Source: Nitrosopumilus sp.
GTDB taxonomy: Archaea > Thermoproteota > Nitrososphaeria > Nitrososphaerales > Nitrosopumilaceae
Direction of reading: 5' to 3'
NCBI GenBank assembly: GCA_965203315.1
Contig: OZ241857.1
Location: forward strand, 736,001 to 800,000
Length of the DNA stretch: 64,000 bases
Below, piece by piece: positions 7,215 through 61,639 of this stretch. How positions within the stretch are numbered: position 1 is the first letter of the stretch; every line of letters begins with the position of its first letter. A program made the position numbers and the translations under genes. The notes beneath the pieces were generated by a model, which saw nothing but the letters and a program-made list of their open reading frames with translations, searched no databases and was not told where the DNA came from.

Positions 7215-7388
7215 GGTTCTGTTCAATTGACGGGGGTTGAGATCGAGATGACGTTATTTCAAATAACGCACAATACTAGACTCAACAGCAGAATTTACGA
7301 TAGCTAGTATGAGACCGTTTCCATATTTTGCAAAACTTTTCAAAAATTTTGTGCAGAAAACGCCAACCACCATCAATTGAACAGAACC
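7215..7388 (+). mobile_element. MITE family A copy (IS6-like TIRs)
   Basis: TIRs ggttctgttcaattga...tcaattgaacagaacc; 6 close copies in window. Confidence 0.9.
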
Positions 7389-20866: not shown

Positions 20867-21038
20867 GGTTCTGTTCAATTGACGAAGATTGAGATCGTGA
20901 TGACGTTATCTCAAACGTACAATATGAGATTCAAAAAAGCATCAATTTACGATAACCAATATGAGGCCATTTCCATATTTTGCAAAGTTTCGTGAATTTT
21001 GTGCAGAAGATGCCAACCCCCGTCAATGGAACAGAACC
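20867..21038 (+). mobile_element. MITE family A copy
   Basis: ggttctgttcaattgacg...cgtcaatggaacagaacc. Confidence 0.9.
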
Positions 21039-53844: not shown

Positions 53845-54987
53845 TTGTCGTATGAAGTAGTTATAGCTGGTGGGAGCATATCAGGTTTGTTGTGTGCCCG
53901 TGAAGTTGCCAGATCTGGTCATTCCGTGATGGTTCTTGAAGAAGATTATGAGATAGGTACGCCTGAGCATTGTGGCGGACTAGTCAGTGTAAATGGTTTG
54001 GCAGATCTTGGCGTTGTGTTATCCTCTAGAACATTTGGATCGATCATCCAACATGCAAAGATCACGGGTCCTGATGGCAGAGGGTTTACTATATCTACAT
54101 CAAAACAAAAGATCGTAGAGGTTAGCAGACGTGAACTCGACAAACATGTAGCACTTCAAGCTCAAAGATTTGGGGCCACAATTACAACTCGTTCGAGTTT
54201 TCATGGCATGACCAAATCCGGTATTCGCACAGACAAGAGAGAGATAGAATGTGATATCTTTGTTGATGCGCGCGGTATCTCATCCTTGATACAGAGAGAC
54301 AGATCTGGAGTGATGCCGTCAGCGCAGTATGAGATTTATGCAGATTGGATAACACAGGGTTTGGTACATGTAATATTGGATCAGTCTAGATTTCCAGGAT
54401 TCTTTGCATGGATAATTCCTTCGGGAGAAGGTAGGGGAAAGGTAGGTGTTGCGGGGTATGGAATAAACCCAGCAAATGCCATGGACTCGTTTCTTCAAGG
54501 ACGCAACTTTTCAGTTATTCGAAAGATCTTTGCGCCAATATGGGTTAAAGGGCCAATCAAAAAATTCGTCAGAGGTAATACAGTAATAGTCGGTGACGCA
54601 GCTGGTCAGGCCAAACCTACAACATCTGGAGGAATCTACTCCAGCGGAATGGGAGGAGTTTACGCAGGTCTTGCTATTGCTAAATATCTAGATAGTAAAG
54701 ATATCAAAGATCTTGATCAATATCAGATTAGATGGAATAGAAAATTTGGCAATGAATTTGAACGACAATTACTCGCAAGAAAGATTCTAGAAAAGATAGA
54801 CAATAAGACAATCTCTAAATTTATCAACTCGGTCACACCAGAGATCGTCAGTACGATAACTAGTGATGATTTTGATTTTCATACTAGTGCGATACTCAAA
54901 ATGTTAGGAGTGGGTCGATCCTTAACACTTGCACGATCTCTACTCGGATCCGAGATCAAACGACGGTTCTTTTATCCATGTGAATAG
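53845..54987 (+). CDS. Geranylgeranyl reductase-family FAD oxidoreductase (C-terminus altered by insertion)
   Basis: GGSISG, CGG, RRELD, FAWIIP, VGDAAGQAKPTTSGGI. Confidence 0.88.
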   Translation: MSYEVVIAGGSISGLLCAREVARSGHSVMVLEEDYEIGTPEHCGGLVSVNGLADLGVVLSSRTFGSIIQHAKITGPDGRGFTISTSKQKIVEVSRRELDKHVALQAQRFGATITTRSSFHGMTKSGIRTDKREIECDIFVDARGISSLIQRDRSGVMPSAQYEIYADWITQGLVHVILDQSRFPGFFAWIIPSGEGRGKVGVAGYGINPANAMDSFLQGRNFSVIRKIFAPIWVKGPIKKFVRGNTVIVGDAAGQAKPTTSGGIYSSGMGGVYAGLAIAKYLDSKDIKDLDQYQIRWNRKFGNEFERQLLARKILEKIDNKTISKFINSVTPEIVSTITSDDFDFHTSAILKMLGVGRSLTLARSLLGSEIKRRFFYPCE

Positions 54988-54999
54988 CTTATAAAGATT

Positions 55000-55167
55000 T
55001 ACTCTGATTCACGACTATTGTGTATAGCTTACGCTAGGGATGTGTTCCCATGTAAAGGACTGCGAACATATATCCATTCGAGTGGTTAACTCAGTATCAT
55101 TCTTCGTCCATTCGTCAAAATCTGTACATTTAACTTGCCGAGTGATATCTCAAACAGAACCCGTACG
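55000..55167 (-). ncRNA. Putative bridge RNA (boundaries approximate)
   Basis: Non-coding region 3' of recombinase containing GTAC-GGGTTCTGTT-hairpin-CGGCAAGTTAAA-T-GTAC, which matches both halves of the insertion target. Confidence 0.7.
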
Positions 55168-56304
55168 TTAATGATTTCGACTACAATGTGTGACATAATC
55201 ATCCCTATCTATAAGCATATGGTACATCAATCGGAGTAGCTTGGAGGCAGTTGCAACAGTTGCCTTGCTTGTCACGCGTCTCTTTTTAATTCTAGTATAA
55301 AATTTTGTAATGTAGCTATGGGGTTCACATTTTATGTGTACATGAACTGCTTCGGTCAATGCCCATCTAAGTATTTTATCACCTTTCCTCGTTATACGTC
55401 CGTGATTTTGTTTACCAGCTGAATTGCGAACAGACGGCACTATTCCTGCATACGAACACATTTTGCGTACATTTGGGAATCTCTTGACATCTCCAATGCT
55501 GGATATTACAACAAGTGCAACAAAGTTTCCAACTCCCGGAATTGTCTTTAACAACTGCGCATCATGTGATCTCTTTACTTCTTTATGCATTTTAATATCC
55601 AACTGTCGAATCTTTTCGTCAGAGAGGTTTATCATGTCCAAATAGTTATCTATTCTATAATCCTCGAGTTTCTTCAATTCCTCTCTAAATGACTTGCTAA
55701 AACTTGAACCAGGTATTTTAATTCCATATTGCAGTAATATCCCATGTATAAGATTCTTGTATCGCGTTCTTCCTTTTACAATTATATCTCTATGTCGAAC
55801 CAACTGTTTCAATTTAACAATGTATTCACTAGGAACAAAACAAGGCGAGATATAATTTCCTCTTAAAAGATCTGCCAGTGTCCATGCATCCACCTTGTCT
55901 GTCTTTTTCTTTGATTCTGCAATAGCCTTTGTTTGATATGGATTCGATAACACTACACCAAATCCCAATTCATCTGTCAAGTATCTATACAACCAATACC
56001 ATACTGACGATGACTCCATCACACAACGTGTATTGAGTGGTGTAAACTGCGCAAAGAATTTTTTTAGACTGTCATGATCTGTGGCAACACGCTCATTGAG
56101 TAGACGCTTGCCATCCTGATCCATTGCTGCAATTTGCAGAAATCTCTTATGTGCATCTATTCCGATATAGATCATCTTGTTTTTACTTTTTGGATGGGTA
56201 ATCTGTTTGTTTGCATTTCCTCTTTTAGATCGCTTTACAGATGATCGCTTGGATCGACCTGCATGCTTTGTATCATCTGAATGTACTCTGATCGACTTCT
56301 TCAC
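55168..56304 (-). CDS. IS110-family DEDD recombinase, intact
   Basis: IGIDAHK, VMES, KTDKVDA (DEDD); TIPGVG, PSVRNSAG catalytic Ser region, RITRKG. Confidence 0.95.
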   Translation of the reverse strand: MKKSIRVHSDDTKHAGRSKRSSVKRSKRGNANKQITHPKSKNKMIYIGIDAHKRFLQIAAMDQDGKRLLNERVATDHDSLKKFFAQFTPLNTRCVMESSSVWYWLYRYLTDELGFGVVLSNPYQTKAIAESKKKTDKVDAWTLADLLRGNYISPCFVPSEYIVKLKQLVRHRDIIVKGRTRYKNLIHGILLQYGIKIPGSSFSKSFREELKKLEDYRIDNYLDMINLSDEKIRQLDIKMHKEVKRSHDAQLLKTIPGVGNFVALVVISSIGDVKRFPNVRKMCSYAGIVPSVRNSAGKQNHGRITRKGDKILRWALTEAVHVHIKCEPHSYITKFYTRIKKRRVTSKATVATASKLLRLMYHMLIDRDDYVTHCSRNH

Positions 56305-56797
56305 ATATGGTTAACTTAACGGGGGGTCGATAGTTTTCATGCAACATTCTCTAAAAATTTTACAAGTTATGAAAAATGGTTAGAACATCCATTGTAGATT
56401 ATTGCTGTTTTAAGTTGCATACAGTACGTTTCTTGAAATATCTGCATCTTAATCTTAACCCCCCGATAAGTTAAAAGAACCCAAACGACTATACAATTCA
56501 AAGAGGGATTCCACAAAAATGTCATGAACCGTCAAGAGCTAATCTATAGATTCCTTACTCGGAGCAACTAACAAATTATAGAACTTGATCGATCGTATCT
56601 TGAATGATATTCAAGACAATCCATCAAATATCATGTGATGCTCCACCACTCATCATAGTGTAAATTCAATGAAACTGTAGATCACAGATTGATTGAGGAT
56701 AACGATCTAGATTATAATCGCCTTGATCTATTGCTTCAATACATGTTATTGAACACAAGATAAGCATCTACAAGCTTTTGATGAGAATATCAATAAC

Positions 56798-59700
56798 ATG
56801 AATAACGAAATAGGACGAAAAACAACTAGTTTAATACTAATGACGATAATGGTCGCAGGCGGACTGACCTTTGCTATACCAAGCACGGAGCCAGTATACG
56901 CCCAGTCGACACCAAATCTATACGTCTCAGCTGCTGATCCAAATGGATACGGAGCTAGATTCGACAACACCTTTGGCGGTATACAGTATGTAGAGGTCAT
57001 CGTAAGTGATCCGTTACTAACCGATCCAAATGATGCTATGCCAAGAGTCACAGTCAATGATGATCCACTCCATTTACAACATGGTGGTGACGGTTCTTGG
57101 TATGGCTACTTTGCAGATAAAGAACGAGACGGTAATGGAGATGGTACTATTGGCGGTAGCGCTGTCGGTGATGTTAACAATGATCAACAAAAATTTAGAA
57201 ATGCGTTTCTCAGTGAGCTACCATACCAGAGAGGCAGTACAGATGACAAGATACTCATCACTAATGCCGACAATGTTGAACACGTAAAGTATCTTGAACT
57301 TGATGATGGGGACGAAGTTGACGTTGTTTATCACAAGGCTGGAAATCCTCAGACAGTAACCGTGACATACGACACGTCTAAAAACAATTCAATCGAGCTA
57401 GATCGAGACTTTTACCCAAGAGGCGCAAATGTCTATCTAACGATCACAGATCACATACTAAACGTCGACCCAACTGAGAAAGACTTTGTACATCTGATGC
57501 TCCAGACTACCACGGGTGTTACTGATGGTAAGATGCGTATCGCTTATCAGCACAGTACTAATCCTGCCACTACTGAGACGTTCAGAACAGATACCGGTAC
57601 ACTTGGGTGTGAAGATGATTGTATACTCGAGGTACCTATGGGCGATATGGAAAAGGTACTTGATGTTAAATTAAATACTCATAGCGCTAATACTGTCGTG
57701 GGACTCAAATTCGAAGAGACCGGACCAAACACCGGTATCTTTGAACTTGCAGACAATGGCGGATCAATAAAGATCAAAGACGATGCTCCACGAGGAACAA
57801 ACACCGTAATCACATACGACAAAGATGATACTGTCGCAGTAAACCTACGACTTACATCTGCTACAGTAAACCTCGATATCGATGACGGCACATGGAACTC
57901 TGGCGAAAAGATCGACTTAACCATAGTCGATGCAGATCAAAACAAAGACAGTGATGCAGAAGATGATCAAACGATAATCAATCCAGACGCAAGAATTCCA
58001 ATATTCATGACTGGAGATCCACATACTCTGGCAGATGGAAAAAATGCTACAATATATGCATATACTGGAGGCAATAAATTTACTGCTTATTCAACAGTAA
58101 CTGGAACTAACGTACATGCTCTAAACTATACCGTAGATGACAGTCATAGAGGAATTATATCATCTTTTGAAACTAAAACAGTCAAGAGAATTGCTATTCC
58201 TCTAGGAACATTAGGAGATCTCCACGAGTCAATAAACGATGATGATCTCAACGGTACAGGTAACTTTACTGGACGCAACATATTCCACTATGACTATCGT
58301 ATCTTTGACAGAAATGACATAACAACTGAACTGTTACTACTTGACAATAGCAGAAGTGTACTTCGTGCCGGAACCATCATGGTTACTGCTGCAGCACTAC
58401 CATATGACGTTAAGGCCGATGTGAGAGATCTAACGGGTTGGTTTATTGCTGAAATTAATGGAGGCAACTATGATCAATCTACTGATCTCAGATTATCTAG
58501 TTCAGAATTGATGGCAGAGAATATCAACAACAACACTCCGGTCATACTATCGCTGAATTTCGGTACTCCATTTGAGTTGAAAGGTGGAACGGAATATCCC
58601 ATAGTCGCAGATTTCTTCTCGTATGGATTCTATAACGATGGCGCACAAGCAGGCGAGAGAGTTGCGAACCAAATAATACGAGTCGAGGTCGAAGAGACTG
58701 GTGAGAACACTAGCACCTTTACAGGAACACTCGAGTACATCATGGTAAATCAACTCGACATGATCGTGACCGATACTGCTGTAACGACAGGAACTGGTAA
58801 TAGCATAACGTATCCAAAGACAGACTACATATTCGATAGTATCACACCAACAGGCAACGAAGTCAAATTCATCGCCTTTGAAGACATCACTGGTTCTGAC
58901 GCGCGAGTAAACTATGCAGACATGGACTCTAACGGCAACATGGCTGTGGTCTCTGACCAACAAGATATCGCAACCTCTAGTGGTGTGGTATCTCTGAACG
59001 CAGAGACATACAGTGTAGGCAGCAATGTCGTTATAACACTAGAGGACGCAGACTTGAACACAGATCCTGACAGAGCAGATACCTATACTGTAGTGAGGGA
59101 CAACGCCAACGCGGATCCAGATAGAGATCAAGTGGGCAAAGATGTAACCAATACCGGTAACAAAACACATGATATCATGTACGAGTCTCTACTACCAGGT
59201 GGTAACTCGTTAGGAATGCTCCTAGAGGTAACCATTGGTGGTGAGAGATGGAAATCTGGCGCATGTAGCCTAGATGATGGAGTTCAGAACGGACTAGGTA
59301 AAACAGGATTCACTCTACAAGAGACCGGACCCAGCACAGGAGTCTTTACAGGTTCATTTTCTGTACCAAAAGAGGTATGCATGGGATCTGACAAACTATC
59401 TGTAAGCGGCAAAGACATTGGTGTAACATATCTAGACTTTAGAGATGCATCTGGTCAGATAGTCACAGCAGGTGACTCTGCATCGATTGGTGCAAGTACA
59501 GGCTCTGTATCTCTAGATAGAACTGTATATCCAGTCCCATATGGTCAGGGTACAGCAGGTTCTTCTAGAGCCCTAGACATGGCCGGAGCAAATCTTGCAG
59601 GCGGTACAGTCAAAGTCTATGTTCAAGTAAACGACCCAGATTACAACTTGAATCCTACAGGCGAGGACAAGATCGAGGACGAGGACGGAAATGGTCCAGT

Positions 59701-61639
59701 AAAGATCACGATCTCCCGCAGTGGTGACGAGTGTCTAATAGGTCACGCAGGCGGTGAGACATCAGTCGCAACCGACGAGATCAGTAGATTGATGCAAGAT
59801 CGAGATACAAAGAGAGATCTCTATAATGCAGACAAGACAAACACTGACAAACAGACAGCATATCTCTTGGCACAACTAAAGTATGATAATGCTAGAAGTA
59901 CAGGTGGTGCATGCCCGGTTCCAGAACCGTTTGGTGCTCTAACAGAGACATCTCCTGAATCAGGAGTGTTCGAAGTAAGCTTTGATCTATCTTACAAGAT
60001 AGGACCAAGCAGTACCGACTGTCCAAATGATGGTAACTGTATCCTACAAGGTGACATACTCACCGTACAGTACAACGACACAACAGACGCTTCTGGTAAT
60101 CCACGTACAGTCACAGACTCTGCTACCTTTGATCTACGAAACGGTGCTCTACAGACAGACAAGTCTGTATATGTGATAGGCTCGGACATGATCGTAACAC
60201 TCATCGATCCAGACCTTGATCTAGACAGCGGTACACGCGAAACATACACACTTGATCTGATCAAGTGGGACTCGGACGCAGGTACCAAGAATCTGAGTGA
60301 AGGTATATTCGATGCAGAACCAGGCTCTCTACGAGAGACTGGTCCTAGCACAGGTATCTTCCAAGTGGTCATATCTGTTCCCAAGGCCATAGACAACGAC
60401 AGACTAGAACGAGGCGAAGAGATCAAGCTAGAATACACCGACTATGGACCATCAGGTGCAGACTTTGTAGGTGATAACACAGAAGATATCGACAGAACGG
60501 TATTCACATCAAACTTTGGTGCTACAATAGAACTAGATCAAAGTGTATACAGTTGGACCGACAAGGTATTCATTACTGTAACAGCTCCTGATCACAACCT
60601 AAACACAAACCAAGTAGACGAGATTGGTGCTAATCCATATCCAGTGCGTGTTGCTACAAGATCCGACGACATTAAAAACTACAAACTCGTAGAGACAGGT
60701 ACAAACACTGGTATCTTTACAGGTGAAGTAATACTGACAGGATTCTCGTACGACGCAGACGGTGATCAAGATACAGGCGAAGATGGTAAAGACGTCACAG
60801 GTCGTACATGTGACACATGTAATGGACCAACCGATGGACTATTACCAACAGACAACGACGACGGACTCGAGGTATCATTCGAGTTCTCTGACGACGAGAC
60901 TGTTCGCAAGTCTGCTCTAATCCGTTGGAACATTGGTGAAGTTCAGTGGCTAGAAGCAAGTTATCCTGCTACAGCTACAGGCGTACTACGTGTAATCGAT
61001 CCCGACATGAACTTGAATCCAGAATCTGCAGACAACTTTGAGGTCAAAGTATGGTCTTCTAGTGCACCTAGTGGAATAACCCTTACAGTAACAGAGACTC
61101 AGCCAGCAAGTGGTATCTTTGAAGGTACTGTATTCTTTGGACTCTCTGTCCAATCAGGTGGTCACAAACTATCCACAGAAGAAGGAGACACAGTCACTGC
61201 AAAGTACAGCGACAACACTCTACCTGCTCCGTACAATACAGGCGACTCTGAAGACATCACTGCAACCACCATAATAGGAACAATAGTACCTCCTCTAGAA
61301 CGAGTAAAGATCGAGTCGTTGAGAATAGTAGACTCTACAGGTACAACACTCAGTACAGTATCAATAGATCAACAAGTCCAGATCACTGCAGATTTGACAA
61401 ACACACAAGACAAAGATCAACCATTTGCATACTTGGTACAAATTCAAGATAGCGATGGCGTTACAGTATCTCTGTCTTGGATTGATGGTTCACTAACACC
61501 ATCTCAGTCGTTTAGTCCATCTCAGTCTTGGATACCAACTGCACCAGGCGAATACACAATTACCGTATTTGCATGGGAGTCGTTGACTATACCAACTGCA
61601 CTATCACCACAACAGACAACAACAATAACTGTAAACTAG
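56798..61639 (+). CDS. Major S-layer protein (Nitrosopumilus Slp1 type)
   Basis: MNNEIGRKTTSLILMTIMVAGGLTFA signal; ETG..TG.F repeats; C-terminal Ig-like QPFAYLVQIQD...SPSQSWIP...PTALS. Confidence 0.9.
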   Translation: MNNEIGRKTTSLILMTIMVAGGLTFAIPSTEPVYAQSTPNLYVSAADPNGYGARFDNTFGGIQYVEVIVSDPLLTDPNDAMPRVTVNDDPLHLQHGGDGSWYGYFADKERDGNGDGTIGGSAVGDVNNDQQKFRNAFLSELPYQRGSTDDKILITNADNVEHVKYLELDDGDEVDVVYHKAGNPQTVTVTYDTSKNNSIELDRDFYPRGANVYLTITDHILNVDPTEKDFVHLMLQTTTGVTDGKMRIAYQHSTNPATTETFRTDTGTLGCEDDCILEVPMGDMEKVLDVKLNTHSANTVVGLKFEETGPNTGIFELADNGGSIKIKDDAPRGTNTVITYDKDDTVAVNLRLTSATVNLDIDDGTWNSGEKIDLTIVDADQNKDSDAEDDQTIINPDARIPIFMTGDPHTLADGKNATIYAYTGGNKFTAYSTVTGTNVHALNYTVDDSHRGIISSFETKTVKRIAIPLGTLGDLHESINDDDLNGTGNFTGRNIFHYDYRIFDRNDITTELLLLDNSRSVLRAGTIMVTAAALPYDVKADVRDLTGWFIAEINGGNYDQSTDLRLSSSELMAENINNNTPVILSLNFGTPFELKGGTEYPIVADFFSYGFYNDGAQAGERVANQIIRVEVEETGENTSTFTGTLEYIMVNQLDMIVTDTAVTTGTGNSITYPKTDYIFDSITPTGNEVKFIAFEDITGSDARVNYADMDSNGNMAVVSDQQDIATSSGVVSLNAETYSVGSNVVITLEDADLNTDPDRADTYTVVRDNANADPDRDQVGKDVTNTGNKTHDIMYESLLPGGNSLGMLLEVTIGGERWKSGACSLDDGVQNGLGKTGFTLQETGPSTGVFTGSFSVPKEVCMGSDKLSVSGKDIGVTYLDFRDASGQIVTAGDSASIGASTGSVSLDRTVYPVPYGQGTAGSSRALDMAGANLAGGTVKVYVQVNDPDYNLNPTGEDKIEDEDGNGPVKITISRSGDECLIGHAGGETSVATDEISRLMQDRDTKRDLYNADKTNTDKQTAYLLAQLKYDNARSTGGACPVPEPFGALTETSPESGVFEVSFDLSYKIGPSSTDCPNDGNCILQGDILTVQYNDTTDASGNPRTVTDSATFDLRNGALQTDKSVYVIGSDMIVTLIDPDLDLDSGTRETYTLDLIKWDSDAGTKNLSEGIFDAEPGSLRETGPSTGIFQVVISVPKAIDNDRLERGEEIKLEYTDYGPSGADFVGDNTEDIDRTVFTSNFGATIELDQSVYSWTDKVFITVTAPDHNLNTNQVDEIGANPYPVRVATRSDDIKNYKLVETGTNTGIFTGEVILTGFSYDADGDQDTGEDGKDVTGRTCDTCNGPTDGLLPTDNDDGLEVSFEFSDDETVRKSALIRWNIGEVQWLEASYPATATGVLRVIDPDMNLNPESADNFEVKVWSSSAPSGITLTVTETQPASGIFEGTVFFGLSVQSGGHKLSTEEGDTVTAKYSDNTLPAPYNTGDSEDITATTIIGTIVPPLERVKIESLRIVDSTGTTLSTVSIDQQVQITADLTNTQDKDQPFAYLVQIQDSDGVTVSLSWIDGSLTPSQSFSPSQSWIPTAPGEYTITVFAWESLTIPTALSPQQTTTITVN

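Follow-up and report, generated by a model that had tools for sequence, protein, structure and literature searches.

How does an IS110-family insertion sequence (IS) come to lie at one exact position within the terminal inverted repeat of a miniature inverted-repeat transposable element (MITE)? The question is raised by a 64,000-nt stretch of a Nitrosopumilus sp. genome (contig OZ241857.1, positions 736,001 to 800,000; hereafter the window), where such an element interrupts a MITE (Table 1). Coordinates below are positions of this 64,000-nt window, and guide, arm and end sequences are given in the sense of the recombinase gene unless stated. From comparison of sequences, we consider it very likely that this is an IS110-family element of IS1111-like layout, in which an RNA encoded in the stretch from the stop codon to the right end (RE) directs the DEDD/Ser recombinase.

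The same genome holds 12 copies of the element, which fall into five subfamilies (three copies of A, six of B, and one each of C, D and E). Subfamily A includes the window copy, and its members are 99-100% identical; the B copies, at 93%, are near-identical among themselves, and the single-copy subfamilies stand at 71% (C) and 67% (D) of DNA and 52% (E) of protein identity. The recombinase open reading frame (ORF) is open in all nine A and B copies, and the element is probably autonomous and recently active. One B copy, B_f (C1:1216091-1217432, L009), has lost precisely 28 nt at the start of the left end (LE), from the core TA to an internal TA. That deletion, which removed the subterminal repeat and the GTG start, may be a TA-to-TA event carried out by the recombinase itself.

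Between the stop codon and the right end lie 193 nt, which contain the predicted RNA. We aligned the non-coding sequence that follows the gene in each of the five subfamilies with homologues from other genomes of the family (alignment A1) and found a conserved RNA region of ~112 nt (55170-55059, minus strand). For 21 sequences RNAalifold gave four helices, with compensatory changes observed in 12 of the 17 predicted pairs. In a 20-pair version, 94.1% of the cells were paired, against 27-45% when the partners were slid by 1-3 columns; 13 pairs showed double changes, against 5-10 when slid, and the covariation score was 0.425, against at most 0.108 for the slid controls. The helices make up two similar internal loops; in each, a closing stem encloses a 5' arm and a 3' arm that are separated by a hairpin. 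The GTAC/GTAC stem and small hairpin that the initial annotation had picked out in the 43-nt string GTAC-GGGTTCTGTT-TGAGATATCA-CT-CGGCAAGTTAAA-T-GTAC (55166-55124, minus strand) prove to be the first of the two loops, with two of the four helices that carry compensatory changes.

A covariance model, R1, was built as well, as the annotation had suggested along with the fold. It scored 93.2 bits on the window RNA and found in its own genome all 12 copies plus three decayed remnants. Among 150 other genomes of the phylum it matched three of the 19 from the same family and none of the 131 from 33 other families. Over 77 loci that encode relatives, drawn from species-representative genomes, its matches numbered 25, spread across 21 loci (24 in 20 Nitrosopumilus records, one in a Bathyarchaeia locus), and none at the bacterial loci among them. 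A search of Rfam with the region returned no family match, only three chance-level hits far below the gathering scores. The three remnants are decayed two-loop RNA copies with no intact recombinase adjoining (C5:139568-139677, C1:89967-90088 and C1:936501-936612; R1 scores 57.6, 43.1 and 35.3 bits).

The two arms of the first loop read like a description of the insertion site. Between A and B the RNA scaffold is identical and two blocks alone differ, the segments 'GG' and 'CGGC' being constant. The A guides are GGTTCTGT(T) and AAGT-TA, and the flanks of A are GGTTCTTT-TA (bottom strand, right) and AAGT-TA (top strand, left); the B guides are GAAGATAT(T) and GACC-TA, and the flanks of B, on the same strands and sides, are TAAGATAT-TA and GACC-TA. 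The recombinases of these two subfamilies are 93% identical, yet their sites have only TA in common. Guides of C, D and E fit their own flanks as those of A and B do, and their 3' arms (AAAAA-TA in C, TCAC-TA in D, GAACT-TA in E) each equal the left flank. The encoded target of the window copy had been counted as three mismatches away from the occupied site; because 'GG' and 'CGGC' are constant scaffold and not guide, the count falls to one, a G against a T in the right guide. The proposal of an RNA that lies 3' of the gene and has, on the two sides of a hairpin, one guide matching the left and one complementary to the right, is supported both by the covariation of the structure and by that of guides with flanks.

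This covariation extends beyond a single genome. In a permutation over 18 elements, we observed a cognate arm-flank sum of 171 against 90.6 ± 7.8 for shuffled pairs, with none of 20,000 shuffles as high, and either arm was significant by itself. In a second set, taken from named genome records, the right arm reached 110 over 18 pairs (shuffled, 72.4 ± 4.6) and the left arm 52 over 16 pairs (shuffled, 28.5 ± 4.2), and in each case 0 of 20,000 shuffles were as high. The Bathyarchaeia element in that set fits at 7 of 8 positions, and one of the genomes in the set carries several sister elements with differing guides, each suited to its own site. On the mechanism we propose, both target arms would pair with DNA beside the TA core: on its right, the top strand with the 5' arm (~8 nt); on its left, the bottom strand with the 3' arm (4-5 nt plus TA). 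What the A guides spell would then be the inverted repeat of the resident IS6-like IS/MITE family at position 8-10, which is why A would insert there, in one orientation and duplicating TA only.

The boundaries of the element follow from comparison with an empty paralogous site. For subfamily D an uninterrupted repeat, catcacTAGaattac, can be set against the occupied arrangement catcacTA|ACCATATG...CACATGGA|TAgaattac; since there is one TA in the empty site and two in the occupied one, only TA is duplicated on insertion. The core is thus TA, as that empty paralogous site has it, and not the 'tta' first assigned. The element had been described as intact and lying within a MITE terminal inverted repeat at 54975-56310, which holds for its intactness and its setting, but the body is one base longer (54975-56311). 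Within the MITE, the insertion point is 8 nt from the left tip, and the repeat reads GGTTCTTT|TA|...|TA|ACTTAACGGGGGG on the left and GGTTCTTTTAACTTATCGGGGGG at the right end.

The protein is a member of the IS110 family by its domains and catalytic residues. It matches PF01548 (1e-28) and PF02371 (Transposase_20; 4e-24), and the NCBIfam model NF033542, 'IS110 family RNA-guided transposase', at 263 bits (cutoff 140). Against solved structures it matches ISCro4 (9t56; 9e-13) and IS621 (8wt6; 5e-11), and the catalytic D (GID), E (ME), D..D (KTDKVDA) and Ser (PSVRNS vs PRRYES) stand in register with both. Domain matches and these aligned residues together bear out the DEDD/Ser assignment; the serine motif is S-A-G instead of S-G. 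The assignment of the host to the thaumarchaea holds too, because the genome encodes an archaeal AmoA (1e-116; 0 of 14 control genomes) and the closest recombinase relatives are in Nitrosopumilus/Nitrosopumilaceae records.

What are the targets themselves? The interrupted MITE is ~180 bp long with inverted repeats GGTTCTTTTAACTTA[A/T]CGGGGGG, and the perfect 8-bp duplication reported on its two outer flanks, CAAACGAC, is there at 54957-54964 and 56482-56489. The same inverted repeats bound three elements of 1.47-1.51 kb (the 1469-bp parents). One parent copy (L031) encodes a 365-aa protein with a DDE_Tnp_IS240 domain (PF13610; 7e-14, cutoff 27), and this protein scores 110.8 bits against NCBIfam IS6, below the cutoff of 125 (7e-32), covering 1-201 of 202. 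Together with the short inverted repeats, which start in GG, and the 8-bp duplication, this upholds the description of the MITE as IS6-like. Classical IS6 elements measure ~0.8 kb, and the parent is longer (1469 bp) because of a SWIM-like N-terminus.

We observe that all three A copies sit at the same position of the terminal inverted repeat, in the same orientation, in the GGTTCTTTTAACTT repeat, as predicted, two in one kind of MITE end and one in the other kind. A further 45 exact 13-mer A sites in the genome are empty (0.26 expected). The genome also holds a second abundant MITE family, with ends GGTTCTGTTCAATTGACGGGGG and ~100 sites, for example at 7215-7223 and 20867-20875 (C1:743215, 756867). 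The right guide of A equals the GGTTCTGT tip of this second family (ending GGTTCTGTTCAATTGACG), to which most of 135 GGTTCTGTT matches belong; the family is without the TA core and the left-guide match, and no A copy is inserted in it. The suggestion that the guide represents a consensus of MITE ends is accordingly half right: the right guide equals the ends of the second family, but the core and the left guide fit the GGTTCTTTTAACTT family only. Five GGTTCTGTTAAC[ACG]TGAC ends fit the A guide with one left-arm mismatch, yet are empty.

Other subfamilies lie in other mobile DNA. One IS66-like element (PF03050, 4e-28; C1:231869-236219, L004, L006, L032) has a B copy in each of its inverted repeats, which read GTAAGATA-TA-GGTC and GTATGATA-TA-GGTC. 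These two copies, B_a and B_c, are inverted to each other, and the whole, flanked by the 8-bp duplication of the IS66 itself, CACTTTTT, looks like a composite. A third B copy is found in another IS66 copy, again in this repeat. Subfamily C is in the interior of a ~300-bp MITE, with its left flank rearranged, and D is in the middle of a DDE_Tnp_4 IS. Beside the C insertion, a 41-nt partial duplication of the MITE in the left flank (C1:1709259-1709340, L010) suggests a rearrangement at that site. We had considered that all subfamilies target inverted repeats, which C and D rule out; the common theme of the sites is multicopy mobile DNA, not inverted repeats per se. In two other genomes the end that relatives occupy is a multicopy ...ATGCATACGGTCT (41 hits vs 8 for the control in one, 24 vs 6 in the other), and they lie 6 or 12 nt inside its tip. 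The relative L037 (genome G001) has the same CGGTCT flank, and there the pattern is not multicopy (1 vs 5 for the control).

The second loop appears to deal with the element's own ends. In alignment A1, elements whose right ends are CACATGGATA have the donor 3' arm ATGGATA, and those with CACATAGATA have ATAGATA. The donor 5' arm contains AUGGU, complementary to the first five left-end bases ACCAT, and we observe that AUGGU, AUAGC and AUGGC track left ends ACCAT, ACTAT and GTCAT. Judging by this covariation, the second loop fits a donor-binding loop that would hold the joined ends: its 3' arm would pair with the element's own right end plus TA, and its 5' arm with 4-5 nt at the very start of the left end, the joined ends being those of the circular form. 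The loop of the second hairpin (55079-55093, minus strand) in A and B contains UUAACCA, equal to the left junction T-TA-ACCA. We rejected 'tggttaa' as a donor guide: its place in this hairpin loop is confined to subfamilies A and B, and neither C, D, E nor the relatives conserve it. A handshake test made by eye, in which the dinucleotide that follows TA in the donor 3' arm was set against the right flank, showed no pattern.

A further property of the donor 5' arm may be a new point. Its last 7-10 nt are a same-sense copy of a motif, (T)TCAGATGGTAnn, that lies 30-42 nt inside the left end, and the copied part includes 2-3 variable bases (AC, AG, TG, AT, GC, CA) that are unable to pair with the left-end terminus. 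The cognate score for donor arm and internal motif was 125 against 105.8 ± 3.4 (0 of 20,000 shuffles as high); the antisense control, donor 5' arm against left end, was at chance level (90 vs 90.0), and we found no conserved antisense partner of the arm anywhere in the 18 elements. Motif and arm agree within one mismatch in 13 of the 18 panel elements, and the same C-to-G change separates A from B in both. The motif resembles the right-end terminus TTCACATGGATA and supplies codons S-D-G/D-x of the N-terminal extension of the recombinase. It can pair with the left-end terminus, because CCAUAUG/CAGAUGG becomes CUAUAUG/CAGAUAG in one clade. It is possible, if doubtful, that donor handling in this archaeal clade departs from that of IS621, with donor recognition coupled to control of a leaderless start and the recombinase made solely from a TATA promoter assembled in the circle. 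The left end may then have a third, internal copy of the end repeat, TTCAGATGGTA, resembling the right end TTCACATGGATA, and either the RNA may bind the bottom strand of this internal pseudo-end or the motif may be an RNA mimic of the donor arm.

The gene's own layout bears on that start. The conserved recombinase core begins at an ATG at 56175 and is 335 aa long; upstream of it, a basic, in-frame N-terminal extension of ~43 aa runs to the end of the element. The frame opened at the terminal GTG continues into the core in 16 of 18 elements, and since this frame near the left end leads straight into the core there is no space for an internal promoter. A TATA-like box begins 20-22 nt before the core dinucleotide at the right end in 16 of the 18 elements by pattern; in the other two the pattern mis-hits, and the same spacing is seen by eye. 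Excision would yield a circle in which the joined ends put this box ~30 nt upstream of the GTG, and the circle would transcribe a leaderless mRNA with both recombinase and RNA, the RNA then being processed from the mRNA. The TATA-to-GTG spacing of ~30 nt suggests such a leaderless archaeal mRNA; we infer the circle, the promoter, RNA expression and catalysis alike. That the box would serve a leaderless recombinase mRNA solely after circularisation may also be new. A conserved DNA block, ATGCAAACAAACAGATTACC (56175-56220, minus strand, and locus L011), differs in frame between elements. In subfamily A an upstream frame of 14 codons starts at its ATG, and the TGA that closes this frame overlaps the core ATG; in D (L011) a +1 shift moves the recombinase start to an internal ATG of the block, which makes the GTG a candidate start.

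Several findings weigh against guidance by the RNA as set out here, and some of them favour other explanations of the sites. The element might find them through protein-DNA contacts, the loop matches being chance or remnants of targets inside the element. The matches are indeed short (4-9 nt), and a single-sequence fold of 54975-55175 (minus strand) has an energy no better than shuffles (z = +0.96), so that the case for the structure comes from comparison among elements. Of the sequencing runs listed, none is recorded as RNA. The A guide has one mismatch at every occupied site, and a perfect A-guide target has no exact occurrence in the genome. Fit to the right flank is poor, 3-5 of 8, in four single-copy relatives (L045, L039, L040 and L041) and 4 of 8 in three elements of the second set (L094, L097 and L089). 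The compared elements are kin, moreover, and the permutation figures overstate their independence. Yet the arms have conserved helices on either side and are ~150 nt away from the end of the element, they vary together with the flanks in the five subfamilies and in two further sets (0 of 20,000 shuffles in each), and the A and B recombinases, 93% identical, go to sites that share only TA. We find site choice by protein contacts hardly credible.

One may instead accept guidance by the RNA and question how often it acted: the multiple copies in MITE repeats would go back to one hit, after which the MITE and its IS spread by IS6/IS66 transposase or by duplication. The window copy and the A copy on C5 have the same MITE end, and the whole of MITE plus IS is 99% identical, so these two are possibly one insertion, leaving at least two certainly independent A events; B_c and B_f likewise have the same inner IS66 flank. 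But the third A copy is in the opposite kind of MITE end with other outer flanks, B_a and B_c are in two different inverted repeats of one IS66 copy, and B_b and B_e are in other contexts that still read ..ACC-TA-ATATC..; the relatives in two other genomes, moreover, are at two positions of the multicopy ...ATGCATACGGTCT ends. Hitch-hiking with a carrier could explain some copies, not all, and as a general account we think it improbable. Nor do we think the copies are fossils, with RNA and recombinase inactive in the genome now, which strikes us as very improbable. Over 54700-56700 the contigs of four runs showed neither an empty-site joint nor an RE-to-LE circle joint, features that contigs rarely show; all four runs gave a contig from the left flank into the element, with loose ends that are flanks of other copies. 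Decay is visible in the truncated B_f, in D, which is frameshifted before the core, and in the three RNA remnants. Against a fossil family stand the close identity within A and within B, their uniformly open frames, and guides that still match their sites. Guidance by the RNA, used repeatedly and probably recently, remains the reading we prefer.

How does this compare with known systems? The comparison draws on three papers of 2024, by Siddiquee et al. (PMC11187229), Durrant et al. (PMC11208160) and Hiraizumi et al. (PMC11208158). In the first, on the IS1111 seekRNAs of ISEc11, ISPa11 and ISKpn4, the non-coding RNA is downstream of the gene, the top-strand complement comes before the bottom-strand one in 5'-to-3' order, and transposase gene and RNA are transcribed together from a junction promoter. 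The second places the bridge RNA of the IS1111 group in the right end. Like these elements, ours has a DEDD recombinase of ~335 aa and an RNA downstream in the right end (PMC11187229, PMC11208160), and also the guide order, subterminal repeats, though imperfect ones, re-programmed close relatives and, as an expectation, a promoter at the joined ends (PMC11187229). Unlike them, it has an archaeal host, a TATA box instead of a split -35/-10 (PMC11187229), and the in-frame basic N-terminal extension reaching the element's end. The box may be regarded, by analogy, as the archaeal counterpart of the IS1111/IS110 junction promoter (PMC11187229). IS1111 ends carry perfect or near-perfect subterminal inverted repeats of 11-13 bp, beyond which the left end extends by 6-7 bp and the right end by 3 bp (PMC11187229). 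Here the repeat matches at 9 of 11 with a 2-nt gap (CCATATGTGAA vs TTCACATGG) and is borderline in length, and the extension is 1 nt (A) on the left and, on the right, A plus TA, which makes 3 only if the core is counted. It is the layout, then, that is IS1111-like, the protein comparison having been with solved IS110-group chains.

With IS621 and ISCro4 (PMC11208158) the element shares two pseudo-symmetric loops of stem, guide, stem-loop and guide; the strand rules, by which in IS621 one guide addresses the bottom strand left of the dinucleotide core and the other the top strand right of it; and the aligned catalytic residues. It differs from them in an RNA 3' and not 5' of the gene, in a reversed order of left and right guides in the loops, in a core of TA and not CT (PMC11208158), and in a protein whose similarity is distant (E 5e-11 to 9e-13). 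End-targeting has precedents in IS4321/IS5075, which enter Tn21-family repeats, and IS1383, which enters IS1384 repeats, by the titles cited in PMC11208160. Like those IS1111-type elements, ours occupies the terminal inverted repeat of a different transposon at one set place and in one direction; unlike in those bacterial cases, its subfamilies have as targets, within one archaeal genome, an IS6-like IS/MITE family (A) and an IS66-like IS (B).

The high novelty first claimed for the locus is weakened by this record, since IS1111 seekRNAs and bridge RNAs and the targeting of transposon ends are already in print (PMC11187229, PMC11208160), as are the right-end position of the RNA, the reversed guide order, natural re-programming and junction promoters. 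Our literature searches turned up no description of such elements in ammonia-oxidising archaea; the supplements of PMC11208160, PMC11187229 and bioRxiv 10.1101/2024.06.21.599552 may list them. The value of the locus is in its legibility: five sister elements on one scaffold, with five guide pairs that can be read against their own sites, amount to a natural experiment in archaeal RNA-guided recombination, and relatives in other Nitrosopumilaceae and one Bathyarchaeia behave likewise. To this natural re-programming it adds a candidate archaeal TATA junction promoter with a leaderless start and the link between donor arm and internal motif. On this evidence, archaeal elements with predicted bridge/seek RNAs too find multicopy safe sites in transposon ends, which bears on the annotation of repeat-rich ammonia-oxidiser genomes. 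The scaffold, from a mesophilic archaeon, is compact (~335-378 aa plus ~110 nt of RNA), with deduced guide rules of 8 nt + TA + 4-5 nt, and its right-end TATA box and internal left-end motif offer testable ideas on how expression might be restricted to the excised circle under archaeal transcription.

Table 1. Features of the element and of the MITE around it (window positions; a point in the strand column stands for no strand)
Feature	Position	Strand	Basis
MITE 8-bp target duplication, left copy CAAACGAC	54957..54964	.	read directly; identical 8-mer at 56482-56489
Outer 8 nt of MITE left inverted repeat, GGTTCTTT; right-hand IS target in gene orientation	54965..54972	+	repeat family GGTTCTTTTAACTTA[AT]CGGGGGG
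TA core copy, right end	54973..54974	.	TA once in empty paralogous site, twice around subfamily D
IS110-family (IS1111-like) element body, 1337 bp	54975..56311	-	11 near-full same-genome copies with these ends, plus a 12th (subfamily E)
Subterminal inverted repeat, right end, TTCACATGG	54976..54984	-	inverted match to CCATATGTGAA, 9/11 with 2-nt gap
TATA-like box CTTTATAAG, directed out of right end; proposed junction promoter of circle	54988..54996	-	pattern and spacing
GNRA-type hairpin CTAGC-GTAA-GCTAT, downstream of the two loops	55024..55037	-	conserved block in 13 elements; CAGT/ACTG in L037
Two-loop bridge/seek RNA region (predicted), begins at recombinase stop codon	55059..55170	-	alignment A1, RNAalifold, pair counts
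Donor loop 3' arm AATGGATATA	55069..55078	-	ATGGA+TA = right-end terminus + core
Donor loop 5' arm AAGAATGATAC	55094..55104	-	same-sense copy of internal left-end motif; tracks left-end termini
Target loop 3' arm GC-AAGT-TA-AA	55129..55138	-	AAGT+TA = left flank + core, top strand; AAGT-TA perfect
Target loop 5' arm GGTTCTGTT	55153..55161	-	complementary to top strand of right flank + core A; 7/8 to own flank
Recombinase ORF, 378 aa from GTG 9 nt inside left end	55168..56304	-	sole long ORF of element; Pfam/NCBIfam
Internal left-end motif GATGATAC, 36 nt from core	56270..56277	-	inside N-terminal extension, codons S-D-D-T
Subterminal inverted repeat, left end, CCATATGTGAA; contains GTG start (candidate)	56300..56310	-	inverted match to right end
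TA core copy, left end	56312..56313	.	TA flanks all copies; empty-site comparison
Rest of IS6-like MITE: inner left repeat ACTTAACGGGGGG, body, right repeat	56314..56481	+	100-80% identical copies elsewhere in genome
MITE 8-bp target duplication, right copy CAAACGAC	56482..56489	.	read directly

Two reading frames border the insertion. A 380-aa host ORF (53845-54987, plus strand) with an FAD-type motif, GGSISG, at its start crosses the MITE target duplication and stops inside the MITE/IS, and its C-terminus seems to have been replaced by the insertion. On the other side, a 1613-aa ORF (56798-61639, plus strand) with an N-terminal signal-like segment adjoins the MITE.

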